The notes beneath the pieces are model-generated. The model was not told the DNA's origin. It made no database searches and saw only the letters and a list, made by a program, of their open reading frames with translations. DNA of 64,000 nucleotides from Chloroflexota bacterium (GTDB lineage: Bacteria > Chloroflexota > Dehalococcoidia > Tepidiformales > Tepidiformaceae): contig JAPPAK010000005.1 in the NCBI GenBank assembly GCA_026705605.1, positions 13,868-77,867 on the forward strand, written 5' to 3'. Shown in pieces: positions 16,693 through 38,440 of the stretch (its first letter is position 1; every line of letters begins with the position of its first letter). A program made the translations under genes and the position numbers.

Positions 16693-18449
<1,757 letters not shown>

Positions 18450-18461
18450 GGGGAGGCCGCG

Positions 18462-19649: not shown

Positions 19650-22600
19650 GGCCGCTACGCCTTGAGCTGCGCGGCTTTACGTCCTTCAAGGACGCGACTG
19701 TCCTGGACTTCGAGGGCCGACACCTCTTCGCCATTACCGGTCCGACGGGCGCCGGAAAGTCCTCGCTGCTCGACGCCATGACATGGGCGCTCTACGGCCA
19801 GGTTCCGCGCGTGGGCCGCGAGACGCGACAGCTCATCACACACGGAACAAGCGCCATGGCCGTCCAGCTGGACTTCAGCCTGCGGGGCGACCACTACCGC
19901 GTCAGCCGCCACGCTCCGGGCAACCTTGGCTCCCGGCTAGAGCGACAGCGCGTGGACGGCAGTTGGGAGCCACTTGAGGACCGCGCGCGCGGCGTGACCC
20001 AGCGCATTGAGGACTTGCTGGGACTGGACTTCGCGACCTTCACAAAGACCGTGCTGCTACCGCAGGGTGCCTTCGACACTTTCCTGCGCGGCGATGAACG
20101 GCAGCGCCGAGACATACTCACGGGCCTGCTCGGCCTCGAACACTACGAAGAGGCTGGCCGAGCTGCTCGCAGTCGCTCAACGGGAGCACGTAGCGCCGCT
20201 AAGGCGCAGCGAGAGCAGATCGAGCGCCTCAACCTTGCCACCCCGGAGGCGATCACGGCCCTGCATGATGAGCTTGCGACATTGGCTACCCGGCTCGAAG
20301 CGCTCGACACGCGCACAGAACTGCTCATTGCCCTCTCCGACGACGCCCGCGCGAGCACGGAAGCGGAGTCCAATGCGGCTCGCGCCGCAGCCGACAGCGC
20401 CGAGGCAACGCGTGCCGCGGAGAGGACACGTAACGCGCTAGCCGATGTCGAGGAGGCTCGTGAGCACGCCCGGTCGGAGCATGGCCGCCTCGAAGCTGAG
20501 CGAGCCGCCCTCGGTTACGACGAAACAGAGCACCGCCGTCTTGACCGTGAGGTCCAGATGCTTGACCAGCGCGAGGCCGCCCGCTCCGCCTTCGACGCGG
20601 CCGAGGCGGAGCAGCGCGAGGCCATCGAGGCTGCCGCACGGGCAACCGAGGAGGCCGGGCACCGAGCCGGCGAGGCCGACAGCGCGGACGCCGCGAACGA
20701 GCAGGCTGTGGCTGTGCAGCGCGCTGCCCTCGATGACCTCATAACAGCCGCCGCCGTGTCGCTCGCTACCGAGCGGGCGCTGGGCGAGGCGGCGAACGCA
20801 GCCGACGACGAGCTCGTGGTCGCCGAGCGTGCTGCCAGCGAACGAGACGAGGAGGCGCGCCGCCTCGCGGCCTTTGATGAGCGCCTGCGCCTACAGCAGA
20901 AGGTGCTTGCCACAGCGGAGCAAGAACACGCTGCCGCGGGCGTTGAGTATGAGGCTGCCGCACACGCCTCGGAAGCCGCGGGCGAGGGCCTGGGAGCCGC
21001 CGAGGCAGAACGTGATGTTCAGGCAGCCGCGCTTGAAGCTGCGAAGCGGCAGCACACTGCGATCGCGCTACAACGCGAACTCAGGCCTGGCGACCCGTGC
21101 CCAGTCTGTGGCGAGCCCGTCGGTCACATCGAGCCGCACGCTGCACCCGAGCTCGACGCTGCACACGAGGCCCTTGACGCCGCCGATGTGGCGCTGCGCA
21201 ATGCGCGTGAGGCGCAGGGTGCCGCAGCCGCGAAGCTCGCGGCTGCGGCAGCGCAGGCCAAGCAGGCGTCGACGGCCCTCGAACGCGCCAAAACCAACCT
21301 CGACACTCTCTTCGCCGAGTCCTCGCAGGTCGGCGTGGATGCCGGCGCGCTCGCCGAGGCGATCGAACGTGCGGAAGCCACAGCCGCCGTGGAGCGCGCT
21401 CGAGCGGAGACCGCCGAGACCGCGCGGGACCGCGCCAACGAGTCGGCTGCGGAACTGGGCCTGTTGCGAGCCACCATCGGCTCCGCCTTCGACGGCGTCG
21501 AAGTGGACCCGGGTGAGCCGGACGAGCCCGATACTGTTCGCGAGGAACTCAGCGCCGCGACGGAGGCCCACCGGGCCGCTGCCGAGGAAGCAGCGGGCGC
21601 GCAGGAGGAATCTCGTGTTGCGCGGGAGCGCTCGCGGGAAGCCGCATCAACTGTCAAGCGCGCCGCCGATCGCCGCATGCGTGCGGATGGCGAGTTAGAA
21701 CGGGCGCGTGAGCGGCTGGCGTCGCTTGGGACGGAGGACGTCGATGCCGACGCGTTGCGGGCAGCACTCCTCGTCGTGCAGCAGCAGGCTGCCCGCCAAA
21801 ACGAGATCGAGGCCGCGCTCGCCAAGGCGGCACAGGAACTGGCGGGCGCCAACGCGCGCGTCGACGCAGCGCGCGAAGCGCTTACGGGCGCCAATGCGAC
21901 CTCGACGCGCCGTGCAGACGAGGCGCAGGCTGCGCACCGCGCCGCGGAGGACGCTCGCCAGAGGCTCGCTAGCGCGTGGACCGCCGCCGCCGTCGAGGGA
22001 GACCCCGATGCCTCCCGAGCGCTGCAACTCCTCGACCGCCACCGCTCCGCGTTTGCCGACTGCAAACGCGAACGGGACCTTGCCGCGCAGCGCGTTGAGA
22101 CGGCGCGAACCGACGCAGCGCGAGCTGAGCAGATGCGCGCCGATGCCAAGGGCTACGACACCAAGGCCCAGATTGCCGACGACCTCGCCCGCGAACTCCA
22201 GAGCAACCACTTCATCGCCTACGTCCAACGCGAGGCGATGCACCTCCTCGCAGCCGATGCCGGGGAGCGGCTACTCGCGCTGTCGAGCGGGCGTTATCGC
22301 CTTGTCGTCCGGGCGGGGGCGTTCTCGGTCGTCGACCGCTTCAACGGCGACGAGGAACGGTCCGTGAAGACGTTGTCGGGCGGCGAGACCTTCCTCGCAA
22401 GCCTCGCGCTTGCCCTCGCACTGTCCGAACGACTGCCAGAGATCGCCGGACGTGGCGGGGCGATGTCGCTCGAGGCGCTGTTCCTCGACGAGGGCTTCGG
22501 AGCGCTCGATCAAGACTCACTCGACACGGCGATCGGCGGCCTTGAGACGCTCGCCGGCGGCCACCGGCTAGTGGGCGTGATATCGCACATCTCCGAGGTC

Positions 22601-22714
22601 GCCGAGCGGCTCCCCGACCGGGTCGAGGTGATCAAGAACGGCGCCACCAGCCGTCTGGTCACGCGGGGCACGGCTCTAGTGGAGAACGAGCCCCCGCTCG
22701 CGGCATCCCAATAG
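19646..22714 (+). CDS. sbcC: SbcC/Rad50-family SMC-like ATPase
   Basis: The GTG start overlaps the sbcD stop (GTGA). Walker A is [23 protein letters not shown] long A/E/R-rich coiled coil carries a zinc hook (PCPVCGEPV). The C-terminus has [28 protein letters not shown] and VISHI. Confidence 0.9.
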
Positions 22715-23158: not shown

Positions 23159-23527
23159 TCAACGGGCCTCGATGACCACGCGTCCGCCGTTCTCCACTTC
23201 CACGTGAAGGTCGTGGCCGGCGAGCAGCCGCATACCGACGAGGGGCGTGGTCTCGGCGGCGTCCGCTTCGATGTGCCTAGCCCGACCATCCCAGTCAACA
23301 GTGACCATGTGGATGTCGAAGCTGACTGCGGTGCCATCTGCCAGGGTCGCCTCACCGCTGGTGACGAAAGGGAGGTCGAGTTCGCCTACAAGTACGGGTG
23401 GCAGCGTGAGGAACCCGTTGTACCCCGTGTCCACCACAGCTTCGACTTCGCGTGCGCGACCTTCAGGGCCCTTCACGGTGAGAGTCAGCGCTGCCTCGTA
23501 GGCAGCATTCACCGCACCCTCGATCAC
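23159..23527 (-). CDS. Retropepsin-like (clan AA) aspartic protease
   Basis: 122-aa ORF with a GTG start that overlaps the upstream stop (GTGA). The active-site context AVVDTGYNGFLTLP is typical of prokaryotic clan AA proteases. Confidence 0.75.
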   Translation of the reverse strand: MIEGAVNAAYEAALTLTVKGPEGRAREVEAVVDTGYNGFLTLPPVLVGELDLPFVTSGEATLADGTAVSFDIHMVTVDWDGRARHIEADAAETTPLVGMRLLAGHDLHVEVENGGRVVIEAR

Positions 23528-23793
23528 TCAGCTCTCCGCAGGGGCCGACCCCCAAAATGGCGCAATGCCCGGTGACCGACCCGGACGCTCCACACGTCGA
23601 CAACATCGGGGTACCGGGACCGGAGATCGCTGGCAGCCGCAAGTAAGTCCTCTGCGACGGCCCAGCAGCCGCTGTTGACGTCGATAGCGACATACTCGCC
23701 GTTGTGGTCGACCTCGACCTCAGCGCGAATGTCGCGCTCGTAGATCGCCTCACCCAAGCGGGCTGTCTCCTCAATGGGTCGACGTACGGCCAT
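23524..23793 (-). CDS. Small partner protein of the aspartic protease
   Basis: ORF 23524..23820; the likely start is ATG 23793 (MAVRRPIEETARLGEAIYERDIRAEVEVDHNGEYVAIDVNSG...). It is translationally coupled to the protease. Family not recognised. Confidence 0.5.
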   Translation of the reverse strand: MAVRRPIEETARLGEAIYERDIRAEVEVDHNGEYVAIDVNSGCWAVAEDLLAAASDLRSRYPDVVDVWSVRVGHRALRHFGGRPLRRAE

Positions 23794-24427
23794 GGCGCCC
23801 TCCCGGAAGCCTCGTCCCAATCAGGATACCGCCCCAGGCAGTGCCTTCCAACGCCGGTGTGAGGCGCCGCTCGGCGCACTCGCTATCTAAGGTCGAGCGG
23901 CTTGGTGTGATGGAGATTCGCTGCCCTGATCTGCGAGCCAATACTGCCTCCCCGTATTCCGAGGTGCTCTGGAGCCACTCATCAAAGCCGGGGTCGTGCG
24001 TCTCCCGCAGAGCCCGCTTCCCCGACCAACGGCCTAGACCTTGCTGTCGCTGCTGCCTCCGCCGAGGGGAACTCGCCGTGACCACACCGAAGGTCGAGAG
24101 CGGTCGCCGACCGGCCCACACGGACAGCCTCACATAGTCCCCGGAAGCCCCGCCGCGCATTCCTCGGAGGAACGTGCGATTGGCTGCCAGGCTGACGGAA
24201 GCTGGAGAGTAATCTGTGTCCGGGTGATGACCTGCGGGGAGGCCTTGGTTGTGTTTCTCGAGATAGGGGAGGGAGAACCCTCGCGTGAGCCGCTTGGCGA
24301 CTGCCCCGGTGGGCATCAGGAGGCCGCTCTCGCCTTCCTGTTGGAGGGTGTGGAACCTACTGAACCATGCCCCGAGTGTGGAGAGATACCTCGGTTCGAG
24401 GGCGCGGCGATGAGCTTGAATTTCCAA
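23771..24427 (-). CDS. Hypothetical protein (weak call)
   Basis: 218-aa ORF whose codon third positions are mostly G/C in the stretch I checked (FHTLQQEGESGLLMPTGA: 15/18). It ends 23 nt inside the next same-strand gene. No motif recognised; it could be a decayed gene. Confidence 0.3.
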   Translation of the reverse strand: MEIQAHRRALEPRYLSTLGAWFSRFHTLQQEGESGLLMPTGAVAKRLTRGFSLPYLEKHNQGLPAGHHPDTDYSPASVSLAANRTFLRGMRGGASGDYVRLSVWAGRRPLSTFGVVTASSPRRRQQRQQGLGRWSGKRALRETHDPGFDEWLQSTSEYGEAVLARRSGQRISITPSRSTLDSECAERRLTPALEGTAWGGILIGTRLPGGRHGRTSTH

Positions 24428-25330
24428 ACCGACGAGCCCATCAAGGGAGTGGACGGCCGCGAATACACGACCTGCCCTCAGTGCGGGGAGGACGCACTGG
24501 AGCTTCAGGGCAAGAACATCGTCGAATGGGGGTGGAAGATCGTCTGCCCAGAGTGCGGCTGGGAGAAGAAGCAGGCCGAGGGCCTTGACATCGCTCAGTA
24601 CTGCGACTTGATGGAAGAGGCCAAGGCGAGACTTGAGTCGATGAGTCAGCTGCTGCGTACGCCGGGGATCACCGATAGAACCCGTGTGGAGTCAATCGGC
24701 CTCCAGCTCCGGATGCTGCTCGAACTCATCGTGTTCAGCTCCCTGGTGTCCAACAAGGACGTATGGCAGAGGTCAAGAAAGGAGCTGCAAAGCTCTCAGG
24801 ACATGAGCAAGAAGCTCAAGGAGTTGAAACGCCTCCATCCCCACTTCTACCCAACACCAGTGGACCTGGAAGGAGATTCCCCGGGAGAGGAACCGGCGGA
24901 TCGCACCAGTGGGTTCATGGACGAGGCCAGGCTGATGGAGGTCTTCGGGAGGTTGGGCAACATCCTTCATGCCGAGAACCCCATGGGACGGGAGACTGAC
25001 TACGGATCCTTCATCGGTGCAGTCCCAGACTGGGTCGCCGAGGTGGTAAACCTGTTGGAGTGCCACAAGGTGCATCTCTACCACCGCCCAGACGAGTTCT
25101 ATCTGATCAAGCTGTTTGGGGACGTGGACGGCGACCTGCTGTGCATCCGGTTCAAAGTCACGGCGGAAGGGGAGACCAATTGCGCATGGCCTGACTGCGT
25201 GTCTTCAAGTATGCGGCTGCACTGCGAATACCTCGGGCGCCCTTGGGCAGAGTGTTGGCTTCCGGAGATTGAGCCAGCTCAGACGCAGGCCAAGGGGATA
25301 GCCAGCCAAGTCGATGACCTCCCGGACTAG
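24410..25330 (+). CDS. Zinc-ribbon protein of unknown function
   Basis: ORF 24041..25330. The first ~120 aa are R/G/P-rich junk, so the start is set at ATG 24410 (MSLNFQTDEPIKGVDGREY...). Two CxxC pairs (CPQCGED...CPECGWE) form a zinc ribbon. The remaining ~250 aa has no recognised family. The region is visibly less GC-rich than its flanks. Confidence 0.55.
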   Translation: MSLNFQTDEPIKGVDGREYTTCPQCGEDALELQGKNIVEWGWKIVCPECGWEKKQAEGLDIAQYCDLMEEAKARLESMSQLLRTPGITDRTRVESIGLQLRMLLELIVFSSLVSNKDVWQRSRKELQSSQDMSKKLKELKRLHPHFYPTPVDLEGDSPGEEPADRTSGFMDEARLMEVFGRLGNILHAENPMGRETDYGSFIGAVPDWVAEVVNLLECHKVHLYHRPDEFYLIKLFGDVDGDLLCIRFKVTAEGETNCAWPDCVSSSMRLHCEYLGRPWAECWLPEIEPAQTQAKGIASQVDDLPD

Positions 25331-25468: not shown

Positions 25469-27319
25469 TCAGTCGGGTGCTTCCAGGATCCCGCTGACGA
25501 TCGCGTGAAGTTCTCTGAAGTTCACAAAGTACCGATGTGTCCCCTCTCTCAGGACGTGGTTGGCAAACTCGGTCTTACGATCGTTTGGGACCTCACGGCG
25601 TACTACATTTCCCTCGGGATCCATCACCGTGTTGGAAAACGGCTTCAGGATTTCTTCATCGTAGTTATTCTCTATTCCGTGGTCAGGGATCCCGCGCTCC
25701 TCCCGCTTCGGGAACGAGAACGGCGTAACCTTAGCGCCACGAGGGAGCTGGCCTCGAAGTTCCTTCTCCTTACTAGCTGCGTCACAATCCCACACTACGA
25801 CGAAATGTGTGTTGAGCTTCATCCTTCCAAGTAGCCGACCATATGTAAGCAGCATCCTGTCATTCGTGTGCGGCTCAAGTCCTTCGAAGACGTTGACGCC
25901 CTTCGGGAAGTACAGATCTACCCACCGCCTCAGATGCTTGGTGTTGTTCCCTTCCGTCAGGATCGTGACCCTGGCCCCGTCGTAGGCCGCGATTCGCAGG
26001 CCCGCGTCGACCGTGGCGATCCCGTCGGACAGCTCGCCGATGGCTTCCGACCTGGTGGTGCGTGCGACCTCGACGTGGCCGCCGCTCCTGGAGATGCGGA
26101 AGATGGCGTCTTCCTCCACGGCCGCCACCGTCATGGGCGAGTGGGAGGTCATCAGGACCTTCGTGCCCTTCGACACGAACAGCTCCCGCACGATCCCGAC
26201 CAGCGCCCTGACCATGGACGGGTGGAGCACGGTGTCGAGCTCGTCGAGAAGGAGCAGGCGCGGGCGGCGCCGTCCCATGTACTGGTTGAACGACACCAGG
26301 CAGAGCGCCATGAGCACCCGTTCTCCGGACGACAGCGCATTGAGCTCGTAGCGGGCGCCGGTGGTGCGGTTCTCCATCTCGGAGACGAACTCGAAGCCGA
26401 ACCGCCGGTAGGTCTCCATGTTGAGCGCGGCGTCTCCGGGGTCGGAGAACGCGAAGTCGAAGAGGCCGTCCTCCCCGGAGGCTTCCTTCATCGCCGCTAG
26501 GATGTCCCGCAGCGCTTCCCACGGTGGGCGGTGCTCCCTCGTATAGGCATCGATGAGATCCTGGTAGGGGATCTGCTTCGTCTCGACGGTTTCGTGCGCC
26601 CACGTGTACCGGTCGAGGACGTACTCGGCGAATATCGTGTTGAGCGGGTTGGTGATGAGGTCTCCCTCCAGGTGACCGGCGGAGAGGATGTCCTCGCGGG
26701 TCAACTCGTGGGGGAGCTTCCCCGCCAGCCTCATGGCCATGCTGAGGAGGGCCGCGCGGTTGCCGTCGTAGCCCGGCGCCGTTCCGCCTTGCCGGTCACT
26801 GCGCGTGGAGTTCAGGGGCTGCAGAACGGCGTCATGGAGTTCACGCAGGTACTCGCTGGTGAGGTCGGGTGCCCCGGAGGTGCTCGCTGACGGGAGCACC
26901 TCGAAGTCCGGGATGCGCCCGACCTCGTCCCTCAGCGCACGCACGAAGGCTTCGCGCGCGCCGGCTCCCGAGGCGTCCTCGATGGCGCCGGCGGCCCCGT
27001 CGAAGACCGCCTCCGCGGCCTCAACCGGACTGCGGTCGCGAGACCCGGCCAGCAGGTAATCGTCGGCGGTCGTCCTGGCGAAGTAGTTGCCTTGGCGGTC
27101 CGCCCGGTCCGTGTTGGGCGGGCGGAAGGTGAGCATGTCGAACAGCTCGACTTCCTCCACGGCGATGCCGGAAACCGCCGCGTGGCCTTGGCGAATGGCC
27201 TGCAGGAGCTGGGTCTTGCCCGTGCCGTTGCGGCCGATGAGGACGGCGAAGTCCGGCAGCTCCACGTCGGATTCGAGGCTCTCGATGGCGTTGTACGGCT
27301 CCCGCAGTTCGATCTTCAT
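25469..27319 (-). CDS. ABC/OLD-like ATPase with C-terminal Toprim/DUF4435-like domain
   Basis: 616-aa ORF. Motifs are Walker A LIGRNGTGKTQLLQAI, signature-like LSSGERVLMALCL, Walker B RLLLLDELDTVLHP and H-loop LMTSHSP. The C-terminal ~170 aa has Toprim-like acidic motifs (VTILTEGNNTKHL ... FVVVWDCDAAS). Confidence 0.8.
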   Translation of the reverse strand: MKIELREPYNAIESLESDVELPDFAVLIGRNGTGKTQLLQAIRQGHAAVSGIAVEEVELFDMLTFRPPNTDRADRQGNYFARTTADDYLLAGSRDRSPVEAAEAVFDGAAGAIEDASGAGAREAFVRALRDEVGRIPDFEVLPSASTSGAPDLTSEYLRELHDAVLQPLNSTRSDRQGGTAPGYDGNRAALLSMAMRLAGKLPHELTREDILSAGHLEGDLITNPLNTIFAEYVLDRYTWAHETVETKQIPYQDLIDAYTREHRPPWEALRDILAAMKEASGEDGLFDFAFSDPGDAALNMETYRRFGFEFVSEMENRTTGARYELNALSSGERVLMALCLVSFNQYMGRRRPRLLLLDELDTVLHPSMVRALVGIVRELFVSKGTKVLMTSHSPMTVAAVEEDAIFRISRSGGHVEVARTTRSEAIGELSDGIATVDAGLRIAAYDGARVTILTEGNNTKHLRRWVDLYFPKGVNVFEGLEPHTNDRMLLTYGRLLGRMKLNTHFVVVWDCDAASKEKELRGQLPRGAKVTPFSFPKREERGIPDHGIENNYDEEILKPFSNTVMDPEGNVVRREVPNDRKTEFANHVLREGTHRYFVNFRELHAIVSGILEAPD

Positions 27320-27446
27320 GCGGTTGCTCCTCCGGGCCGGCGCCTGCGCGTCGCGCCGGACGCCCGGGGCGGCCGCCGGGGGCGGCGGGACCGCACCCCG
27401 CCGGCGCCGACCTTATGGGGTGTCGATGACCGTGCACCCTCCACGG

Positions 27447-30170
27447 CTACCGATCCCACTTGAGGTCCTCTATTTCTTCTTCCAGCCAACTGAAAGCGAG
27501 GGTTGTTGCAGGCCGTGGTTGAAACAGCAGGTGAGAGGCGCTGGTAGACATGGAGAATAACTTTGCTTCCTGTCCAGGTTTTCCGCGCAGGGCAGTATAT
27601 TTTTCACTCTCTTCCAGGAAGTAATCTTCGCCAGCCCACCCTTCCTCTACGGTTTCGCCCATCTCGATCTCTGCTGAAGAATCTGCTCTTTCAGGCAGAA
27701 TTCTCGGTTGCCACATGACTGCGGGGTGGACGTGGGGCTCATCGCGATCCTCGGGGAACACCAGGACCCCGGTTATCTTGACGGGAAGCAGCGAGTACAG
27801 CCCGAAGTGATGCGCCATGGGTTCGAACCACTCTTCAACGACTTCCCTGTAGATTCGGAGCGCGGCGCTAAGGATCGCGTTGGTCCGCGAGAGCAGTTGC
27901 CCGTCGCTGTACGTCTTCCAGATCGGTCCTGATCTGAACTGGCCATCCCGTTCGGGCCACGGCGGCGGGACCACCTCCCGGCCCTGCTGCAGGTGCGCGG
28001 TCCAGTGGTCTCTGACGGCGGTGAGCTCTGCCCTGGAATACGACACGCCGCCAAGGCCCAGCATCTCGACTCCTTCATAGGCCTCGAGTCCTTCGATGAC
28101 GTCCCTGCTGGAAAGCTCCTGTGTGGCGACGGTTCGGCTTCCCAGGACCGTTGCCCCCAGTTCCCAGCTGAGCTCCCGGACTGCATCAGCCGAGTGAAGA
28201 CGGAGTTCGTACCCCTCCAATGCCCTGGCAAGCTCACGCCCCAGGTCTTCCTTGGTCAGGAGCCAGCTCCAGAGATCCGTGTTCGGGACGCTGCGGCCGC
28301 TGAAGGTCCAATCGCGAAGAGGCTGACTGTCAGCCGTTGCCGGGCTCACCAGTTCGGAGGGCTCCCTCTCGGCCGGCCCACGGTACCAGTGGGTCGTGAC
28401 CCAGTGACCGTTCACCCCGACCCGTAGGGGGCGCCGGGTTCCCCCGAGGGTGACAGGACCCACCAGGCGGAACAGGCCCCCCAGGCCCTTCTCCCAGGCA
28501 TCCAGGGCCGTACCGATCGCCCGCCCGGCAGCCATGGGGCTCCGCAGCGAAGGGACCGTCTCCTCATCTTCGTGGTCGTCCAGATACCACCGATCGCCAA
28601 CCGCCTCCTGGATAAGCATGCTGGTGAATCCGGGATCGGCCGCCGCGAGATGCTGCAGGAGGTCGCTGACGAATGTCCCGCTGCCGGCGTGCAGGGCGAT
28701 CGCGAGGGGAACGAGCCAGCGGTCGACCGGCCGGTTGAAGGAACCGATGGGGACCGTGCCTTCGACGACGGCCCTGGAGGCGTACCAGTCACGAAAGACC
28801 GGGAGCGCGAAGTCAACGGTGCCGCCCGTCTCAACGACGATCCTGGATCGCAGCAACAGGTTGTGCTGGGACAGTCGACTGTCGAGTTCCACGAGCGGCA
28901 CGCTGGCCCCTCGTTCGACGGCGAGGGCGGCGAGGGTGTGGAGGAGGCGGTCGAGGTCGCCGCTGGGGTCGGGCAACTCCCTGCGGGCGTCGGCGATCAC
29001 CTCCTCGATAAGCCGCCGCCTCGACGAGAACAGCAGATCGGGCTGTGTTCGGAGCCTGACCCCGAAAATGACGGCGCACAGGGGGTTGCGAGCCGCCTCC
29101 CGCATCGAAGTTGACCACTGGTAGGTGTGGCGGGGTTCCAGGTCCAGGCCGGAAAGGCGACACAGCAGCGAAAGCAGCTCCTCGTCGCTGAGTTCGGGCA
29201 TCGACCGGGGGCTGGCGGTGGAGGACAGTCCCGCAAGGGATCGGGACGTGAAGAGGATGGTGGCCTTCGGGTTGGCGTCGACGTACGCCAGTGCCTCCTG
29301 CACCAGGCCATTGGCTTCCCTGGTGCCTCGTTCGTCGAGCCCGTCAACGATGAGCAGCACGCCCTGGACGTAGGGGTCGGCATACCCCTGGCAGGCCTGC
29401 GCAATGTAGTTCGAAAGGGAGGTGGTCACCTCCCTGGCGCTGGCGAAGAGGGGGAAGGGGTGGGAAGGGTCCTCGAGCGCCTGGAGGATCGCAGTCTGAT
29501 AGAGCCTCTCGGCTGCCAGCGTCTTTCCCGCGCCAAGTTCTCCCGTGACCGTGTGGACGCCGGGCGGGGGATACGCCAGCACATTGCCGACAGCCGCATC
29601 GGCAGCGAGGGCGCTCGCGACGTCCTCGGGCACACCCAGCGAGCGCCACGCCGCGCTGCAGCTGGAGAGCGACAGGGCGTGACGTTCCCGCAGCGTCTTC
29701 CCACGAGACACGTACCCGGGACGGCGTACGGAACGGACGAGTTCGTCGGACAGTGCAGCGCGTATCGCCTCGCGCAGGTGGGAGACATCGTCCACGTCCT
29801 GCCACTTGGCAACCCCGCTGACGGTGTCCAGAAGACGGAGCGTCTCTTCCGTTCGTTCCTCACTGGGCAACCTGAACACCAGCAACCGCCCCTGGGAAGC
29901 AATGCACTGGGTCACTTCGTTGGCGACGGGCTGGGTCGTCTCCCGGCCGACAAGCCAGATGACGAAGTCCGCTTCGGCAACCTTGCGAAGGTAGCCGTCC
30001 TCGGCCGTCTCGGAGCTCGCGGGGGTGTATTCGAACGCCCAGGGATGCCCGAAGTCGAGGGACTGAATTGCCAGGGTGGTCGTCTCCCGAGCAGGATCAA
30101 AGGCGGGCGCCATCACACTGCTGACGAATACCAGGAGGTCGGACTCGCTGCGGTGGAGAGGTCGTGGCAC
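27447..30170 (-). CDS. STAND NTPase: DUF4062/TIR-like N-terminal domain + NACHT module + long uncharacterised C-terminal region
   Basis: 907-aa ORF. The N-terminus reads LLVFVSSVMAP...ADFVIWLVGRETT...GRLLVFRL. The P-loop is TGELGAGKTLAAERLYQ and Walker B is GVLLIVDGLDERG. About 500 aa of the C-terminus has no recognisable repeats. Confidence 0.8.
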   Translation of the reverse strand: MPRPLHRSESDLLVFVSSVMAPAFDPARETTTLAIQSLDFGHPWAFEYTPASSETAEDGYLRKVAEADFVIWLVGRETTQPVANEVTQCIASQGRLLVFRLPSEERTEETLRLLDTVSGVAKWQDVDDVSHLREAIRAALSDELVRSVRRPGYVSRGKTLRERHALSLSSCSAAWRSLGVPEDVASALAADAAVGNVLAYPPPGVHTVTGELGAGKTLAAERLYQTAILQALEDPSHPFPLFASAREVTTSLSNYIAQACQGYADPYVQGVLLIVDGLDERGTREANGLVQEALAYVDANPKATILFTSRSLAGLSSTASPRSMPELSDEELLSLLCRLSGLDLEPRHTYQWSTSMREAARNPLCAVIFGVRLRTQPDLLFSSRRRLIEEVIADARRELPDPSGDLDRLLHTLAALAVERGASVPLVELDSRLSQHNLLLRSRIVVETGGTVDFALPVFRDWYASRAVVEGTVPIGSFNRPVDRWLVPLAIALHAGSGTFVSDLLQHLAAADPGFTSMLIQEAVGDRWYLDDHEDEETVPSLRSPMAAGRAIGTALDAWEKGLGGLFRLVGPVTLGGTRRPLRVGVNGHWVTTHWYRGPAEREPSELVSPATADSQPLRDWTFSGRSVPNTDLWSWLLTKEDLGRELARALEGYELRLHSADAVRELSWELGATVLGSRTVATQELSSRDVIEGLEAYEGVEMLGLGGVSYSRAELTAVRDHWTAHLQQGREVVPPPWPERDGQFRSGPIWKTYSDGQLLSRTNAILSAALRIYREVVEEWFEPMAHHFGLYSLLPVKITGVLVFPEDRDEPHVHPAVMWQPRILPERADSSAEIEMGETVEEGWAGEDYFLEESEKYTALRGKPGQEAKLFSMSTSASHLLFQPRPATTLAFSWLEEEIEDLKWDR

Positions 30171-30519: not shown

Positions 30520-31485
30520 CTAGTTCCCTAGTCCCGGAACCGCGTAACTTAGGTCTTCAGCGATTCGTTCGAGTTCATCCACGTCGAATGCCCCTGACCA
30601 GAGGGGCAGGAGAACGCTAGACTTGGATGACAACAGGTGGCCTACGAGCAATATCTCGGGCTGGTTCAGGAAGACGCTGCCTACTCGGTTGTCACGGCGT
30701 TGGCGCAAGCGCTCAGGCAGCCAAGATCGGCTCGATTCAGCCCACTCGACTGCCTTGCCGCTGATGGCGTCTGCATCGAGCCCTGGGAAGGCTGGGAAGA
30801 GCGTCTCAATGACTTCTTGACTGAGGACGCGATCGTAGGAACCCCCTCCGAGACTCAGGAACGTGCCCTCGACCTCCGAGAGTACTCGAAGCGGCTCATA
30901 GTTAGGGTCCTTGATGATCTCCTGGAATATCTCCTCATACCTCATATCGGCGAGTTCCAATACCGCGGCAAGGGCTGCCAAAGATCGTCCGTGTAGGTAC
31001 GGGGTTTCTCTCACTCCTTTGTAGGAAAGGAAGTGGGACATATTCGCCCAAGCATCTTCAGTTACAGTGCGAACTTGCAGTTCGCACTCCAGATCGGAAA
31101 ATTCAGGACTTCCTCCCCGACCAGTGAGTTGGATATGAACAGACCTGTATGAAAATGTATCAACGTCAAGTGCTTTCCTCTTGTCGTCTACTACACCGCC
31201 AAAATTTTCATGCAGCGCACGCACGGCCCGATCTACATCTGAGGGAACACGTACAACAACACGAACACCAACCTTGTCCGTGACCTGCGAGTACGCGCCG
31301 TACCCCTTGCGGAGCACCTTCTTGGCAATGCTGTCTGGATCTTTGATGCGGAGTGAAACCCTCTCAGCTGCGATTCGCTCAGTTTGAAGAACCGTGTTGA
31401 CGTCAGCTTCGATGGCCTGACCGTACTCTCGATGCCGCGGTTCTTCCACTTCCCACTTGGCTAAAGCTTCGCTCGCAACGGACAT
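30520..31485 (-). CDS. RelA/SpoT-domain nucleotide pyrophosphokinase (small alarmone synthetase / toxSAS-like) with private C-terminal extension
   Basis: ORF 30520..31545. The start is set at ATG 31485, 1 nt after the upstream stop. Synthetase motifs are RIKDPDSIAKK, DKVGVRVVV, YRSVHIQL and ELQVRTVTEDAWANMSH. There are no HD, TGS or ACT regions. Confidence 0.85.
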   Translation of the reverse strand: MSVASEALAKWEVEEPRHREYGQAIEADVNTVLQTERIAAERVSLRIKDPDSIAKKVLRKGYGAYSQVTDKVGVRVVVRVPSDVDRAVRALHENFGGVVDDKRKALDVDTFSYRSVHIQLTGRGGSPEFSDLECELQVRTVTEDAWANMSHFLSYKGVRETPYLHGRSLAALAAVLELADMRYEEIFQEIIKDPNYEPLRVLSEVEGTFLSLGGGSYDRVLSQEVIETLFPAFPGLDADAISGKAVEWAESSRSWLPERLRQRRDNRVGSVFLNQPEILLVGHLLSSKSSVLLPLWSGAFDVDELERIAEDLSYAVPGLGN

Positions 31486-31486
31486 A

Positions 31487-32518
31487 CTAGCCGACTCTAA
31501 ATTCGTCGCGCACGGTGACATTAACTTCTGAGCTAGATGCGTCAAGGTCCCCGACTGTTACCCGATTAACCCATTCGGATGGTGGTCCTGCAATCATCAT
31601 CCCATTGGCTCCTATCATTCTGAGCCTTGAGACGGTGGGTCCAACTAGGGCGTTGTCCTTCTCAAACTGCGGTGGAGCGCCTTTCTCGTCTAGTGCCGCA
31701 TCGAGCAATGGAATCTCTTCTGTCTCCAGATAAGCCTGAGCGAACTGAGAAGGCGTGATTGTAGCTTTGCGCGAGTTTAGCTCACTGGCAAGATCCAAGC
31801 GAAGCTCGGTCTGGCGCTTCGGATCAGAAATCTCGCTGATGACACTCTCCACTGCTTCGACAAATCGCTTGGTGGCTTCTCTGGAATCTATGGCAGGTTC
31901 TGCCCCGAGGAACGCGTGGATGAAGAAGCGAGCAGCAGCCCTCCTTGCATTGAAGCCTCTCTGACGATCAGCGACCTCCAGGACATAGCCGTCAGCGCTA
32001 CGCAGCACGAAAGCTTGTTTGTGCAGTCTGGTTCGTGTGGAGAGGATGAGATCCCGCACGTGTTCGAGCTCGACTATGCGGGTGCCATCGGGAAGCTCCT
32101 TCCGGTCGATCCTCACGCCCTGTTCGTGCTCGAGCTTCAGGAAGATGAGGGCTGGGATGCGGCTATGCTGACCAAGAGCTACTGCCAGCAGCCCTCCTGA
32201 GCTAGAGCCAGGCTGGACGCTGGCGAGATGGAGAGCCGCTTCCCGAGACGCAGTCAAGAGACTGTCCGGATCGGTTTCCAGAACATCGACGCAGAGCTGG
32301 GGTACTGGCGACTCGCTGCCACTGGAGAATTGAGCCCGGAAGGACTCCTCCGATGCGGCCACGCTGATGATTCGCTGCTCGAAGAACTCTGCGAGATCGG
32401 GCGTGAGTTCGCTCAGTTGGTCCGTGAGAATCACAGACGCCCCGGCACCAGGAACTCCTTTACGGATCTCGTGGACCACCATCTGATGTACGGCCAAGCC
32501 ATGAAGGTCAAGGGGCAT
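31487..32518 (-). CDS. NdpA/YejK-like nucleoid-associated protein family (NA37) member
   Basis: 343-aa ATG ORF. The N-terminus LHGLAVHQMVVHEIRK, central GGLLAVALG...ALIFLKLEHE and FFIHAFLGAEPAIDSREATKRF resemble E. coli YejK blocks (INQIALHQLIKRD.., ..FFMDFLGASEG..). Recognised by eye, not by search. Confidence 0.65.
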   Translation of the reverse strand: MPLDLHGLAVHQMVVHEIRKGVPGAGASVILTDQLSELTPDLAEFFEQRIISVAASEESFRAQFSSGSESPVPQLCVDVLETDPDSLLTASREAALHLASVQPGSSSGGLLAVALGQHSRIPALIFLKLEHEQGVRIDRKELPDGTRIVELEHVRDLILSTRTRLHKQAFVLRSADGYVLEVADRQRGFNARRAAARFFIHAFLGAEPAIDSREATKRFVEAVESVISEISDPKRQTELRLDLASELNSRKATITPSQFAQAYLETEEIPLLDAALDEKGAPPQFEKDNALVGPTVSRLRMIGANGMMIAGPPSEWVNRVTVGDLDASSSEVNVTVRDEFRVG

Positions 32519-32800: not shown

Positions 32801-35056
32801 CTAGCCCCCTGCCCCAGTCAGCTCGGCCTCCCGCTCCCGCTCGAGCGCCCACTCGAACAGCGAGAGCGTTGGGGCTTCGTGCCGACGCTGGCCCTTCGGC
32901 TCGCCCGACTCCCCGGCCATAAACTCCGCCCACGAGAACAGCAACCGCTGCGGCTCCGAGTGCACGGCGTCCGTGACACTCTCGCTAGGCACTGCGGCTG
33001 CGGCCGCAACCAGATCTGGCTGGGGCCCGCGCCACTCCTCGTCGACCAGCAGCGCCTCGGCTTCCGCCGCGACCTGCTGGGCCTGGGCGAAGACCGACTC
33101 GACCGAGCCTGTGTCCTCCTCGCCCGCGACGATCTTGCGCGCCAGGGTGAGCATCAGGTCGTCACCCTCGTCCCCGTGGGCGGCGAGGCCGTCCTCCGGT
33201 AGCTCACCCTCCACAGCCAGCGACGACTGGAGCTTCTGCGCCACCAGCTTGAGGGCGTCGGCCTGCAGGGTGTTCCGGTAGGCCATGAAGACGACCTGGA
33301 CGGGCTCGGTCTGGCCGATGCGCCAGGAGCGCCGTGACGCCTGCCGCATGGTGTAGACGGAGTAGTCCGTCTCGTACCAGCAGATCGTCGGGAACTCCAC
33401 GAGGTCCAGCCCCGTCTGCACGAGCCGCGGGTGGCAGACGAGCACGTCGACGCCCTCCTCGACGCGCTTCGCCACCCATGCCTCGCGGCGCTCGGGCGGG
33501 ACCGCGTCGGCCTTCATGACCGCGACCTTGAAACCGTGGCGGGAAAGGAACTCCTCCATGCGCCCGGTGATGTCGCGCGTGCCCGTGTGGGTCGCGTAGA
33601 CCAGCACCCGGCGCCCCGCCAGCCGCTCGGCGGCGACGAGGTCGACGAGCGCCCGCTCCTTCGGGTAGAGCCGCTCCTCGGAGAGGGGCGGCACCTGCAC
33701 GAGCACGTCCTCCGTTTCCGGGTCGAAGACCGTCTCGCCGCGCGTGCAGCCGTCAGGGTAGGCCAGCAGCGTCTGCAGGTACGTGGCGAGGAGACGCTTC
33801 GAACCCTTCGCGAGGAGCTCCGTCAGCGCCTTCCGCAGCGTCCCGAAGAGCTCGTCGTAGGCGCTCCGCTGGGAGAGCCCGGTGCCGTCCTCCTCGGTCT
33901 CCATGTCCGAGAGGAGCACCCGCTCCTCGTAGGGCGGCAGCCCGGCGGCGACGTCGGAGAGCCTGAGAAAGACGGAGTTGCCGATGAGGTGGAAGAGCGC
34001 CGCGGGGGCGAGCCCCGGGCGCTCCCGGATGACCTTGCGGTACTTCCGCCGGCGGCTCGTGCGGCCGTCCTCGAGGGACTCGCCGTCGTCACGCCCGATC
34101 GTGTGCTCGACGAAGCCGTAGCGCTCGATCCAGCGGCTTTCCTCCCCCCGCCCGAACTCCCCCCGGATCTCCGGCGAGAACCGGTAGAGCAGGTGGAAGA
34201 GCGTGGAGGAATACCCTCCCATCAAGGTGCCGCTCAGGGAGAGCGACTTGCCGCAGGCGTCGGCGAGGATGCCGGCGGCGATGCCCTGGGCAGAGCCTCT
34301 TCCCTTGTACTCGTGGACCTCGTCACTCACCAGCAGGTCGAAGAAGCCCCGCAGGTGGTGCTTCACGTAGTCGGCGAGGGGGTAGCGCTTCGGACCAGAC
34401 TTGTCCGCCTTCCACAGTGCGGAGCCGCACTCGTCGCAGGCGCGCTTCCTGCGGGCGAGGTCCTTCTGCGTGAGGGGCAGCCCGTCCTTGTCCACGATCG
34501 GCTCGAAGCAGTCCGGGCAGCACGGTACCCGGAACGGCTCCAGCGTCTCCTCATGGCGGACGAGCCTGCCGTCCGCCGTAGCCCAGCGCTCGACGACGGC
34601 CGGCAGCCAGCGGTAGGAGAGCTTCGCGCGCTCACGCGACATGACCGCGAAGAGCGGTCCCGTCCCGTGGGACAGGCGCAGCTTCTCGAGGTCGGTCATG
34701 GAGGCGACGACGGCGGCGCGGGCGTCGGGCACCGTCTCCTCGACCTCGCGCTTCCACTTGCGGGTGAGGTGTGGCGGGCAGAGGACGAGGATGCGGCGGA
34801 AGCCGGCCAGGTGGGCGGCGGAGGCTGCGATGAAGGTTTTCCCCGTCCCCATCTCCCCAACGACGGTGGTGCCGCGGTGTTCCTCGAGGGAGAGGGCGGC
34901 GCCGCGGATGGCGTCCGCCTGCGCCCCCAGCGGCATCCGCAAGAGTTGCGGAAGGGGCCGTCGATTCTCGGAGGGCCGGTAGCGGGGCGGGTAGGACTCC
35001 ACCACCCGCTGGGCGATGGCGTCGCGGTAGGTGTCGATGAACTCTGCGAGGTCCAT
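32801..35056 (-). CDS. SNF2-family helicase with inserted zinc ribbon
   Basis: ORF 32801..35650, but the first ~198 aa are R/P/G-rich. The start is set at ATG 35056, preceded by AAAGGAA. Motifs are VGEMGTGKTFIA, LVSDEVHEYKG (DExH), RRVLVYATHTGTRD and ASRRSWRIGQTEPVQVVFM. The zinc ribbon is CCPDCFEP...CDECGSALW. Confidence 0.85.
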   Translation of the reverse strand: MDLAEFIDTYRDAIAQRVVESYPPRYRPSENRRPLPQLLRMPLGAQADAIRGAALSLEEHRGTTVVGEMGTGKTFIAASAAHLAGFRRILVLCPPHLTRKWKREVEETVPDARAAVVASMTDLEKLRLSHGTGPLFAVMSRERAKLSYRWLPAVVERWATADGRLVRHEETLEPFRVPCCPDCFEPIVDKDGLPLTQKDLARRKRACDECGSALWKADKSGPKRYPLADYVKHHLRGFFDLLVSDEVHEYKGRGSAQGIAAGILADACGKSLSLSGTLMGGYSSTLFHLLYRFSPEIRGEFGRGEESRWIERYGFVEHTIGRDDGESLEDGRTSRRRKYRKVIRERPGLAPAALFHLIGNSVFLRLSDVAAGLPPYEERVLLSDMETEEDGTGLSQRSAYDELFGTLRKALTELLAKGSKRLLATYLQTLLAYPDGCTRGETVFDPETEDVLVQVPPLSEERLYPKERALVDLVAAERLAGRRVLVYATHTGTRDITGRMEEFLSRHGFKVAVMKADAVPPERREAWVAKRVEEGVDVLVCHPRLVQTGLDLVEFPTICWYETDYSVYTMRQASRRSWRIGQTEPVQVVFMAYRNTLQADALKLVAQKLQSSLAVEGELPEDGLAAHGDEGDDLMLTLARKIVAGEEDTGSVESVFAQAQQVAAEAEALLVDEEWRGPQPDLVAAAAAVPSESVTDAVHSEPQRLLFSWAEFMAGESGEPKGQRRHEAPTLSLFEWALEREREAELTGAGG

Positions 35057-35217
35057 GGTTCCGTTCCTTTCGTGTTGCTGTAGGGTTCGCGGGCGGCCAC
35101 CCGTGCGGCCGTCCATGTGAAGCGAGGCCCCGCCTACCGATGGGTGGCAGGCGGGGCCTCGTGCTTGCGGATCGGCGTCGACCCGTCGAGCCGCCAGATG
35201 GAGGCGGCTGGAAGAAA

Positions 35218-36255: not shown

Positions 36256-36893
36256 CGGATGTCTCCTTCCTGGTCGGTGGCCGGTGTGGATGCGTCCCCG
36301 TCGCGCGGCAGCGTCAGGAGTCCCGACGCGACCGCCACGGAGAGGTCGTCCCGGAGCGCCTCGGCGTCCGGGTCGCAGCGGTAGGCGACGACGCCCTCCG
36401 ACTGCAGGGGGACGGCCTCCTCCCGCGCCAGCGCCCGCCGCCAGAGCCAGTCCGCCCAGGAGCGGTGCAACGGCAGGGGGCTGCGGCGGTCGAGGAAGCG
36501 ATGGTGGAGCGAGGGCGCCTCCTCCTCGTTCTTCGCCAGGAGGAGGAAGGCGTCCCGCTCGAAGGCGTACTCGGCGAGCCTCGTATGGACGAGGGCGTGC
36601 CAGCCGCCCGAGACGGGCAGGCGGGTGATCTTCGTGGTCCACGTCCCGACCGTCTCGCGGGGGACGTGGCAGCGCTGGTAGCCAGCCGAGAGGGCCATGC
36701 CGTCCGCCCCACGGATGAGGTGAGCGGGGTCGGGCGGCTGCTTCAGGAGCGAGCCCCAGATGGCCTTGAGGGCGGTCTGGGAGCCCACCATGGAGAGGAA
36801 CCAGAGGCCGCCGTCATCGGCGTCCCTGGCGAAGGCGTCGGCCGTGGCGGAGAAGCCGCCGGCGGTAACGGTGTGGAGGTCGTCGGGCGTCAC
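36252..36893 (-). CDS. Hypothetical protein
   Basis: ORF 36252..37043; the likely start is GTG 36893 (GGAGG upstream, GTGA overlap with the preceding gene). No family recognised. Confidence 0.45.
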   Translation of the reverse strand: MTPDDLHTVTAGGFSATADAFARDADDGGLWFLSMVGSQTALKAIWGSLLKQPPDPAHLIRGADGMALSAGYQRCHVPRETVGTWTTKITRLPVSGGWHALVHTRLAEYAFERDAFLLLAKNEEEAPSLHHRFLDRRSPLPLHRSWADWLWRRALAREEAVPLQSEGVVAYRCDPDAEALRDDLSVAVASGLLTLPRDGDASTPATDQEGDIR

Positions 36894-38347: not shown

Positions 38348-38383
38348 TGGAGTTTCTCCTTCTGGTGCTGGTTAGTCGGACAC

Positions 38384-38440
38384 GAAGCGGGGCCGCCCCC
38401 GGAAGGACGGCCCCGTGTGCGCTCCCGGTCGGGGAGCGTC
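38384..38440 (-). repeat. Intergenic GC-rich double-hairpin element, copy 1
   Basis: gaagcggggccgcccccggaaggacggccccgtgtgcgctcccggtcggggagcgtc. The stems are GGGGCCG../..CGGCCCC and GCGCTCC../..GGAGCG. It lies between the stop at 38476 and the start at 38347. Confidence 0.65.

Follow-up and report, generated by a model that had tools for sequence, protein, structure and literature searches.

The window analysed here, a stretch of 64,000 nucleotides, is part of the chromosome of a Tepidiformaceae-like member of the Chloroflexota, and two consecutive genes lie on its reverse strand. The upstream gene (gene 1; 27447..30170, GTG start, stop codon included) encodes a 907-aa NLR-like protein in which an N-terminal DUF4062 (NIR) domain precedes a NACHT module and a predicted sensor region, and the downstream gene (gene 2; 25469..27319, ATG start, stop codon included) encodes a 616-aa protein composed of an OLD-like ABC ATPase and a Toprim-like domain. 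The GC-rich spacer between them, read directly from the sequence, comprises 127 nt (27320..27446, reverse strand) and contains a ribosome-binding site, GGAGGAG, that precedes the gene 2 ATG by about 8 nt. Positions, lengths, shared strand and the 127-nt gap, all taken from the ORF list and the translations, agree with those of a first-pass annotation of this DNA, and the four motifs quoted there (GELGAGKT, LLIVDGLDE, ILTEGNN and WDCD) are present in the translated proteins. Judging from the existence of homologue families of similar protein length, both ORFs are real genes and not chance ORFs. A consensus search of the spacer found no promoter-like or terminator-like site, and hairpins predicted by folding are no more stable there than in shuffled sequences (z=0.27), a result that is uninformative in a genome with 66% GC. 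Because both genes share a strand and are 127 nt apart with no promoter or terminator seen between them, co-transcription is possible.

By sequence comparison gene 1 belongs to a conserved family of proteins of about 900 aa, in which DUF4062 (NIR) is followed by NACHT and by a C-terminal region without known domain. Members of the family come mostly from metagenome bins of uncultured, Chloroflexota-type bacteria; we found 162 homologues, and most of the 120 listed are approximately 870-950 aa long and show 33-66% identity. The N-terminal TIR-like domain (approximately residues 10-135; 29766..30143, reverse strand) is matched by the Pfam model DUF4062 (PF13271) with 18.5-22.9 bits (22.9 bits at residues 14-76), which is below the cut-off of 24.7. 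DUF4062 is matched, in addition, by all 15 N-termini of family members that were searched (best E=3.9e-9), and a precomputed match is on record for 69 of the 120 homologues listed. The DUF4062-like N-terminus that had been proposed for this protein therefore holds at the level of the family, the window protein itself scoring below the cut-off. DUF4062 has been described as a TIR-like NADase effector and renamed NIR; this was shown for PsAvs2, Swarozyc and Vulcan, and NIR is also present in other NLR-like proteins (bioRxiv 10.64898/2026.05.01.722283; 10.64898/2026.09.04.749371). In the light of these 2026 preprints gene 1 carries its own effector domain, a predicted NADase. The candidate for its catalytic glutamate is E85 (29916..29918, reverse strand; codon verified). 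In an alignment of 15 N-terminal sequences only two glutamates, E47 and E85, are invariant, and of these E85 alone remains so when all 64 family sequences are compared. Compared by position, its distance from the start of the domain is comparable to that of the catalytic KpSwz E97, PsAvs2 E108 and Vesta E103. A sequence profile search of the PDB retrieved no solved relative of the gene 1 NIR domain.

The NACHT-type STAND NTPase module that follows (approximately residues 200-405; 28956..29573, reverse strand) has a Pfam NACHT match at residues 207-314 and a profile match to NLRC4, and it includes the Walker A motif GELGAGKT (residues 210-217; 29520-29543, reverse strand) and the Walker B motif LLIVDGLDE (residues 272-280; 29331-29357, reverse strand). 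With 25.3 bits, the NACHT model (PF05729) scores just under its Pfam cut-off of 26.7 in the window protein; a precomputed match to it is found in 45 of the 120 homologues listed. The family profile matches residues 246-384 of NLRC4 (E=5e-4), and G213, G215, K216, D276, D279 and E280 show no variation among 64 family sequences. The invariant Walker motifs, the NLRC4 match and the Pfam matches among homologues bear out, for the family, the NACHT domain recognised earlier. The remaining part of the protein (approximately residues 406-907; 27450..28955, reverse strand) is a family-specific, tryptophan-rich region of about 500 aa, the predicted sensor, with eight invariant tryptophans from W462 to W895 in the family alignment. 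No Pfam model matches it, in agreement with the undefined C-terminal region of this size noted before, and conservation within the family extends along its whole length. None of the families in PADLOC-DB v2.0.0, Avs and bNACHT models included, matches the 907-aa protein at E<=1. A weak NPHP3_N match is also seen in this protein.

Gene 2 has a larger family, with over 450 homologues reaching E<=1e-3 and at least 457 clusters at 90% identity; its tail alone forms 305 clusters at 50% identity. With one exception the 120 homologues listed are approximately 600-690 aa long, and they are mostly 54-60% identical. Members occur in Chloroflexota, Latescibacterota, Rhodothermales, Longimicrobiales, Terriglobia, and Alpha- and Gammaproteobacteria, and this scattering across phyla at 44-60% identity suggests horizontal transfer. 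The ABC/SMC-type ATPase head (residues 1-435; 26015..27319, reverse strand) exceeds the Pfam cut-offs for AAA_21 (57 bits) and AAA_15 (44 bits); DUF2813, a model associated with OLD proteins, matches it only marginally. On the same strand it contains Walker A (GRNGTGKT, 27212-27235), the signature motif LSSGE (26321-26335), Walker B (LLLLDELD, 26234-26257) and the H-loop histidine H393 (26141-26143), and these head motifs are 97-100% conserved in 74 relatives with an identity of about 25%. Between Walker A and the signature, the AF2 model shows a helical insertion (approximately residues 75-285; 26465-27097, reverse strand), and an ABC ATPase with an inserted helical or dimerisation domain is also characteristic of class 1 OLD proteins. 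A Foldseek search with the model of the whole protein (pLDDT 80) retrieved SMC heads, PtuA, the retron Ec83 ATPase, TsOLD (6p74, E=3e-6) and GajA (8u7i), and hhalign aligned gene 2 to the Walker B region of P2 Old with a probability of 91%. Together with the Pfam matches, these results confirm the ABC/OLD-like ATPase recognised in the first-pass annotation. All PADLOC matches of gene 2 (ATPase-Toprim_I-B 70 bits, mad3 70 bits, AriA 60 bits, PtuA 51 bits, AriAB 49 bits, GajA 44 bits) are confined to the head, the mad3 match covering profile positions 17-363 of 374.

As matches to the ATPase head dominated the search with the whole model, which was blind to the tail, the C-terminal domain (residues 445-616; 25472..25987, reverse strand) was modelled separately. 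The AF2 model of the tail (pLDDT 90, pTM 0.87) has four strands in the order beta1-alpha-beta2-alpha-beta3-alpha-beta4, with E456 placed after beta1 and D511xD513 after beta3. Its best Foldseek match in the PDB is 9lm3_A, the RT-Toprim chain of retron Eco2 (E=0.011, probability 0.99, TMq 0.55; the match is known per whole chain). ILTEGNN (residues 453-459) and WDCD (residues 510-513) include the conserved E456-G457-x-N459 (E456, 25952-25954) and D511-C-D513 (25781-25789), which are followed by E550 of G548-I-E550-N551 (25670-25672) and K582 (25574-25576), all on the reverse strand. In 74 relatives with a median identity of 25%, E456, G457, D511, D513 and K582 are 100% and E550 is 99% conserved, and the tail residues listed here lie at 97-100% throughout; such invariance of acidic and lysine residues points to a catalytic role. 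The tail of about 170 aa sits C-terminally in full-length ATPase proteins of approximately 550-690 aa, and shorter matches look like fragments.

Sequence profiles do not recognise this domain. Pfam reported neither Toprim nor DUF4435 on the isolated tail, on 20 family tails or on 10 distant relatives; NCBIfam gave no match for the tail; PADLOC matched the 20 family tails only with mad4, at E=0.047 and in two of them; a sequence profile search of the PDB returned a single, spurious match to a designed repeat; and hhalign against the Toprim domain of P2 Old was null (probability <=0.2%) with both narrow and wide tail alignments. Foldseek against viral predicted structures found nothing significant. 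We regard the tail as probably Toprim-like by its predicted fold and invariant motif set only, that is, by one Foldseek match (E=0.011) and the order of the motifs. The tail had been described as Toprim/DUF4435-like. The first half of this description stands by fold and motif (model confidence, Eco2 match, invariant residues) and finds no support in any sequence profile, and the second failed every profile test, since PF14491 was never reported at E<=10 (tail and 20 family tails) or at E<=0.1 (10 distant relatives). Of the domains that the earlier annotation had named for profile searches, NACHT and DUF4062 are thus found at the family level and AAA_15/AAA_21 in gene 2, and DUF4435 was not detected.

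The Toprim domain of Eco2, the best structural match of the tail, has been reported to be an RNase (PMC12405507). Tentatively, gene 2 might found a previously unnamed, widespread OLD-like class with a minimal, profile-invisible Toprim domain whose fold resembles the RNase of retron Eco2 more than the OLD/GajA DNases; such a protein might act as a stand-alone ATP-gated RNase, or as another new nuclease, in partnerless abortive infection. Weaker still is the additional suggestion that, in this lineage alone, cross-talk might link the gene 2 protein to its NIR-NACHT neighbour. Another conceivable identity is that of a fused PARIS of the AriAB type, in which the ATPase would respond to an anti-restriction trigger of the phage by freeing or activating a Toprim part that cleaves tRNA, not DNA. 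Fused AriAB proteins are known (PMC10568477), the protein has the AriA match and the AriAB match (query residues 319-473) mentioned above, and both the Eco2 RNase and AriB (8ux9_A) are among the structural matches of the tail. However, the PADLOC matches are limited to the generic C-terminal portion of the ATPase and are no better than those to ATPase-Toprim_I-B, mad3 and PtuA, AriA in the PDB matches at the P-loop only (E=0.28), AriB appears at rank 45 (E=0.3, 85 aligned columns), and DUF4435 was matched neither in the window protein nor in the 20 tails and 10 distant relatives. We therefore consider a fused PARIS unlikely, and a PARIS Toprim module of the DUF4435 type was rejected on the absence of PF14491 and the rank of AriB.

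Three further candidates were rejected for gene 2. MADS was prompted by PADLOC matches to mad2, mad3 and mad8, the first of them (56 bits) coming from a DUF6094 methyltransferase in the window. The scores are far below the equivalog cut-offs (NCBIfam MADS3 on gene 2: 40 bits vs 420), and MAD6-8, which MADS requires (bioRxiv 10.1101/2023.03.30.534895), are missing, the only such signal among the window ORFs scanned being a mad8 match of 29.6 bits on a HerA-like ORF. For Gabija, there is no adjacent UvrD/PcrA-like helicase GajB in the window and no conserved neighbour in the family. For a type I-B retron (class 3 OLD), no RT gene was found among the neighbours and the window ORFs scanned, and no Rfam family reached threshold in the 64,000-nt window.

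The first-pass annotation had offered two readings of the gene pair, two stacked single-gene systems or an ATPase-nuclease serving as the effector of a NACHT sensor that lacks an obvious enzymatic effector domain of its own, and had asked for their co-occurrence in other genomes. When each protein was compared by tblastn with the loci of the other family, no partner gene turned up, either in the 32 ATPase loci or in the 18 NACHT loci, with flanks of up to 8-10 kb where the contig allowed, the NACHT loci being fewer and often short. Of the 32 loci, all with ATPase relatives, 26 contain complete or truncated members of the family itself. All-vs-all clustering of ORFs revealed no conserved neighbour for either family (26 loci for the ATPase family). 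The closest homologues of the two genes lie apart as well: an ATPase homologue at 78% identity adjoins a type I restriction-modification system and has no NACHT gene beside it, and a HEPN-like gene and a transposase come after a NACHT homologue at 66% identity, which has no ATPase gene beside it. Other ATPase homologues were found next to a toxin-antitoxin pair, in an island with a type I restriction-modification system and GmrSD, and among housekeeping genes. In addition, the best 120 of more than 450 ATPase homologues and the best 120 of 162 NACHT homologues have no contig size in common save that of the window's own contig (402,149 bp).

It is thus quite probable that two separate single-gene immune modules were inserted at adjacent sites of a Chloroflexota defence island and do not form a co-operating pair, which supports the first of the two readings. 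The alternative, a single two-gene system in which the NACHT sensor activates the downstream ATPase-nuclease, or the reverse, could draw on the shared strand, the 127-nt gap and the lack of a recognisable terminator or promoter between the genes. The pair is also retained in two island variants of apparently the same species while a neighbouring cassette differs, but this says little because the proteins there are identical to those of the window. Against such a system stand the separate occurrence of the two families and of their closest homologues, the lack of conserved neighbours and of shared contig sizes, and the effector domain that the NACHT protein already possesses in DUF4062; we hold it to be very improbable, and the earlier proposal of an effector-less sensor finds no support in either co-occurrence or domain content.

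The surroundings of the two modules are those of an island with cassette turnover between strains. AbiE, a RelA_SpoT-like gene, a helicase and methyltransferase pair and a RadC-like gene are found nearby in the window, in which gene 2 is flanked by the NACHT gene and a convergent ORF. Gene 2 lies about 2.7 kb from SbcC, with NurA, HerA, SbcD and SbcC adjacent to each other. This location, the SMC/RecF-type fold of the head and the one homologue among housekeeping genes would suit a housekeeping ATPase for DNA repair or chromosome maintenance that is linked to the NurA/HerA/SbcCD operon and has a non-catalytic binding domain as its tail, but SbcCD and NurA are neighbours in none of the 26 other clustered loci, the scattered phylum distribution suggests horizontal transfer, the family is often found beside restriction-modification systems, toxin-antitoxin pairs and transposases, a related genome contains a truncated copy, and the invariant tail residues argue for catalysis, so that this reading has hardly any probability left. 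Scans of viral contigs gave one distant relative of the ATPase and none of the NACHT protein, and there is hence no evidence of either gene being phage-borne.

From the gene structures, domain and motif content, predicted fold, family distributions and lack of co-occurrence established directly here, we infer the biochemistry and the defence role of two independent modules as follows. In the first, the C-terminal family-specific region would bind a phage-derived ligand and thereby license NTP-dependent oligomerisation of the NACHT module, which would bring the N-terminal DUF4062/NIR domains together. These might then hydrolyse NAD+, with E85 as the candidate catalytic residue, and cause abortive infection by halting the infected cell. 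The second module would be class-1-OLD-like, with the helical insertion of the ABC head as the likely dimerisation element and the invariant E-G, DxD, E and K set as a putative metal-dependent nuclease site; the ATPase may gate this nuclease or direct it against DNA or RNA, without a partner gene.

The gene pairing itself is ordinary and, as the reading of a sensor with a separate effector is not supported, the locus shows no new wiring of immune modules. Its significance lies in the single genes. Gene 1 adds a clade from uncultured Chloroflexota, with a new predicted sensor region of about 500 aa, to the newly recognised NIR(DUF4062)-NLR proteins. Gene 2 defines a large, unnamed, cross-phylum family of class-1-OLD-like proteins, which finders will annotate only as 'AAA family ATPase' because current Pfam, PADLOC and NCBIfam models miss the Toprim-like domain. 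Work on OLD proteins has yet to settle whether stand-alone proteins of the class 1 type protect broadly against phages (PMC10568477), and the compact gene 2 family would be a tractable test case for this.

Among known systems, gene 1 resembles PsAvs2 (bioRxiv 10.64898/2026.09.04.749371) in that a NIR domain containing a conserved glutamate stands at the N-terminus, ahead of a STAND NTPase and a long C-terminal part. It shares with PsAvs2-type NIR proteins the single-gene organisation, the defence-island context and the expected logic leading from sensor to oligomerisation and NAD+ depletion. In contrast to the Avs/NLR-like NIR proteins, the NTPase of gene 1 is of the NACHT type, its C-terminal region matches no known repeat or sensor domain, and it falls outside the PADLOC models of the Avs and bNACHT catalogue. 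Other systems with DUF4062 are Swarozyc (10.64898/2026.05.01.722283) and Evangelion (10.64898/2026.06.25.731849). The order of DUF4062 and NACHT is also that of human TEP1, NWD1 and NPHP3 (the eukaryotic group being given as TEP1, NWD1/2 and NPHP3), and the NACHT Walker A and B motifs and the NLRC4-like region after Walker B are shared with bNACHT and the eukaryotic DUF4062-NACHT proteins; unlike in these, no WD40, TPR or LRR repeats were detected in gene 1, and its Pfam NACHT score remains below the cut-off.

Gene 2 has the AAA_15/AAA_21-type ABC ATPase head of PARIS, Gabija GajA, Septu/retron PtuA and MADS MAD3, but none of the partners GajB, PtuB, AriB, RT or MAD6-8 is present or conserved beside it, and the NCBIfam PtuA model scores 33 bits on it vs a cut-off of 500. 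With the RT-Toprim protein of retron Eco2 (PDB 9LM3; PMC12405507, PMC12916289) it shares Glu-Gly, DxD, Glu and Lys in the same order, the Eco2/OLD active site being composed of E374, G, D460xD462, S513/E515 and K562 (PMC12405507). However, the sequence identity between this protein and the tail is 12%, D378, the acidic residue of Eco2 at +4 after the catalytic glutamate, has no counterpart in gene 2 (N459 stands at +3), and the Toprim domain of Eco2 is joined to a reverse transcriptase under the control of msDNA, whereas that of gene 2 is joined to an ABC ATPase and no RT gene occurs as a conserved neighbour of the family or among the window ORFs scanned. From class 1 OLD proteins (P2 Old; Thermus scotoductus OLD, 6P74) gene 2 differs in a tail without profile similarity to the OLD Toprim or any Pfam Toprim model, in a more compact domain (55 residues from Glu to DxD vs 86 in Eco2), in E-G-x-N instead of the ExxxD arrangement, and in a head matched by AAA_21/AAA_15 and only marginally by DUF2813. 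It is nevertheless like them in being a single gene without a fixed partner, and in combining an N-terminal ABC ATPase that carries a helical insert with a C-terminal Toprim-type domain containing Glu and DxD.

The two adjacent minus-strand genes, which lie in a part of the window with a GC content of about 66%, were recovered as long ORFs exactly where the first-pass annotation had placed them: gene 1 at 27447..30170 (907 aa, GTG start) and gene 2 at 25469..27319 (616 aa, ATG start). Translation likewise confirmed the motifs GELGAGKT (residues 210-217) and LLIVDGLDE (272-280) in the product of gene 1, and ILTEGNN (453-459) and WDCD (510-513) in that of gene 2. More than 450 proteins are homologous to the gene 2 ATPase at E<=1e-3, and the best 120 of them are nearly all about 600-690 aa long and mostly 54-60% identical; for the NACHT protein encoded by gene 1 we found 162, and among the best 120 most are about 870-950 aa long, with 33-66% identity. 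Both ORFs are real genes. The 127-nt spacer between them carries a good ribosome-binding site; neither a promoter nor a terminator could be recognised in it, and the hairpins predicted for it are no more stable than those of shuffled sequences. Co-transcription is possible, which has no bearing on functional dependence.

Two readings of this arrangement had been proposed: two stacked single-gene systems, or a co-operating pair in which the ATPase-nuclease is the effector of a NACHT sensor lacking an effector of its own. A scan at one genome per species found ATPase relatives at 31 loci, in Chloroflexota/Dehalococcoidia, Latescibacterota, Rhodothermales, Longimicrobiales, Terriglobia, and Alpha- and Gammaproteobacteria; none contained a NACHT-protein relative in up to 10 kb of sequence on each side, and ORF clustering of these loci revealed no conserved neighbour of the ATPase family. 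Conversely, an ATPase relative was present at 0 of 18 NACHT loci collected from a metagenome scan and contig look-ups, where no neighbour recurred in more than three loci. The two genes were thus not together at any other locus sampled, which leaves the co-operating pair unsupported. The closest relatives are decisive on the question of independence: the 78%-identical ATPase homologue follows a type I R-M system and precedes a transposase, and the 66%-identical NACHT protein is flanked by transposases and a HEPN-like gene. Other ATPase homologues are found beside a HepT/MNT toxin-antitoxin pair, in a type I R-M and GmrSD island, or among housekeeping genes. With the partner absent at all these loci, the closest relatives apart and the contexts so varied, gene 1 and gene 2 are therefore mobile single-gene cassettes, and their adjacency in the window represents local stacking.

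The domain content of gene 1 also removes the premise of an effector-less sensor. In Pfam searches the NACHT match (residues 207-314) reached 25.3 bits (cut-off 26.7), and the DUF4062 match (residues 14-76) 18.5 bits with the whole protein and 22.9 bits with the N-terminus alone (cut-off 24.7). Both labels hold at the family level: precomputed matches to DUF4062 and NACHT are present in 69 and 45, respectively, of the best 120 of the 162 homologues, 15 of 15 family N-terminal domains match DUF4062 (best E=3.9e-9), and the family profile aligns with the NACHT region of NLRC4 over the stretch between Walker B and the 'PLF' motif (E=5e-4). The DUF4062 domain, a TIR-like NADase now called NIR, serves as the effector in PsAvs2, Swarozyc and Vulcan, and its catalytic glutamate is E97 in KpSwz, E108 in PsAvs2 and E103 in Vesta (bioRxiv 10.64898/2026.05.01.722283; 10.64898/2026.09.04.749371). 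E85 of gene 1 does not vary across the 64 family sequences, and the 15-sequence N-terminal alignment has only one other invariant glutamate. Because the domain is an NADase effector in known systems and E85 is invariant, gene 1 is, by analogy, probably a self-contained effector-NTPase-sensor, NLR-like module. Its C-terminal region of about 500 residues has no Pfam match and is conserved family-wide, with many invariant tryptophans; no PADLOC model matches the 907-aa protein.

For gene 2, the earlier label of an ABC/OLD-like ATPase was borne out. AAA_21 (57 bits) and AAA_15 (44 bits) pass the Pfam cut-offs, the PADLOC matches (ATPase-Toprim_I-B, mad3, AriA, PtuA, GajA) all fall within the ATPase head, and NCBIfam matches stay far under the equivalog cut-offs. 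In the AF2 model (pLDDT 80), Walker A and the signature motif of the ABC head are separated by a long helical insertion; Foldseek places the model near SMC heads, PtuA, the retron Ec83 ATPase, the Thermus scotoductus class 1 OLD protein (6p74) and GajA, and hhalign aligned the region from Walker B to the D-loop with that of P2 Old (probability 91%). The proposed Toprim-like nature of the tail (residues ~440-616) went unrecognised by every sequence profile tried, but is favoured by the predicted fold and by conserved motif residues. Modelled separately (pLDDT 90, pTM 0.87), the tail has the beta-alpha-beta-alpha-beta-alpha-beta order of the Toprim core, with E456 directly after strand 1 and D511-x-D513 directly after strand 3. 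In the PDB it is matched best by the retron Eco2 RT-Toprim chain 9lm3_A (E=0.011, probability 0.99, TMq 0.55); the other matches listed have probabilities of <=0.47. Among 74 full-length relatives (median identity to the window protein 25%), E456-G457, D511xD513 and K582 are 100% and E550 is 99% conserved. A tail profile search returned 305 clusters at 50% identity, in which full-length matches are about 550-690 aa long and end in the tail, and shorter ones look like fragments. Fold and residues together point to a Toprim-like domain. Given the predicted fold, the Eco2 chain match and the conserved residue order, gene 2 can be read as an OLD-like architecture, in which an ABC ATPase with an insertion is joined to a compact, divergent Toprim-like module. 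Membership in DUF4435/PARIS is unsupported, as the tail is unmatched by sequence profiles and AriB (8ux9_A) ranks only 45th among its structural matches.

The stretch from 11 to 38 kb around the gene pair is island-like. It begins with a type IV toxin-antitoxin/abortive-infection pair (12112-14222, +), made up of the gene for an AbiEi-like antitoxin (12112-13344) and that for an AbiEii nucleotidyltransferase toxin (13341-14222; 137 bits); pieces of this segment reappear scrambled in L024, a related Tepidiformaceae locus. An operon follows (15685-22714) that combines an archaeal-style NurA-HerA unit with Mre11/Rad50-type genes: NurA (15685-16692, +), a HerA-like ATPase with weak HerA and mad8 matches (16614-18449, +), SbcD (18462-19649, +) and SbcC (19646-22714, +). 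The ATPase gene is 2.7 kb away, and elsewhere the operon is unlinked to the ATPase family. Next come two overlapping small genes (23159-23820, -) encoding 89 and 122 aa, neither with a Pfam match, the longer product containing a retropepsin-like 'DTGYNG' motif; a copy of the pair, ~90% identical, stands in the other orientation beside the 78%-identical ATPase homologue (L033, 7060-7694). An unassigned ORF convergent with the ATPase gene (24041-25330, +; 306-359 aa according to the gene callers) has a sub-threshold zinc-ribbon as its sole domain match and no PADLOC match, and its C-terminal end is also kept beside a truncated ATPase copy in L024.

Beyond the gene pair lie a RelA_SpoT-like gene (30520-31545, -; PADLOC PDC-S33 match) and an NA37 nucleoid-associated-protein gene (31487-32518, -), which may form a candidate defence module, of the toxSAS type or another. 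Contigs with identical copies of the gene 1 and gene 2 proteins occur in two variants, with this cassette (the window and contig L053) or without it (contig L052), which shows strain-level cassette turnover beside the NACHT gene. The island continues with an SNF2-like helicase (32801-35650, -) together with a DUF6094/mad2-like N6 methyltransferase (35218-36642, -), and then a protein of 387 aa with a C-terminal RadC-like JAB domain (37353-38516, -; 117 bits); such genes often occur in defence islands and mobile elements. Helicase homologues of 72% and 66% identity are convergent with and adjoin NACHT relatives (37% identity) at two loci (L038, L034), and NIR-NACHT genes may share the helicase locus as an insertion hotspot. 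Three very long ORFs occupy the flanks of 70%+ GC (2540-10279, 50351-57106 and 57824-61534, all -; 2579, 2251 and 1236 aa). The window contains no tRNA genes and no Rfam family reaching threshold, and neither protein family is notable on viral contigs. Pieces of the window match a Tepidiformaceae genome bin at 81-91% nucleotide identity, and the bin has a truncated ATPase gene copy, which assigns the window to a Tepidiformaceae-like Chloroflexota. In this MAG (OZ220739.1) the remnant (L024, 10000-10690), the strongest pointer to the taxonomy of the window, comprises residues 460-616 only and is 90% identical to the window in amino acids and about 91% in nucleotides. An intact ATPase paralogue of 59% identity is present in the MAG as well (L001), and the coexistence of both indicates gene decay and turnover.

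In the stacked arrangement each module would act by itself. For gene 1, the sensor region would bind a phage product, the NACHT domains would oligomerise and bring the NIR domains into the assembly, and NAD+ hydrolysis would then abort the infection. Gene 1 shares with PsAvs2, Swarozyc and Vulcan the DUF4062/NIR domain, and is a new addition to the NIR-NLR kind, which was described only recently. Gene 2 represents a variant of the OLD-like kind that is new and as yet has no name. The active site of Eco2 consists of E374, an invariant Gly, D460xD462, S513/E515 and K562 (PMC12405507), and its residue order E-G / DxD / E / K is kept in the gene 2 tail; because the tail is structurally near the Eco2 RNase domain, RNA would be a real possibility as substrate. 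Gene 2 may encode an ATP-controlled, metal-dependent nuclease working alone, as do class 1 OLD and fused PARIS proteins.
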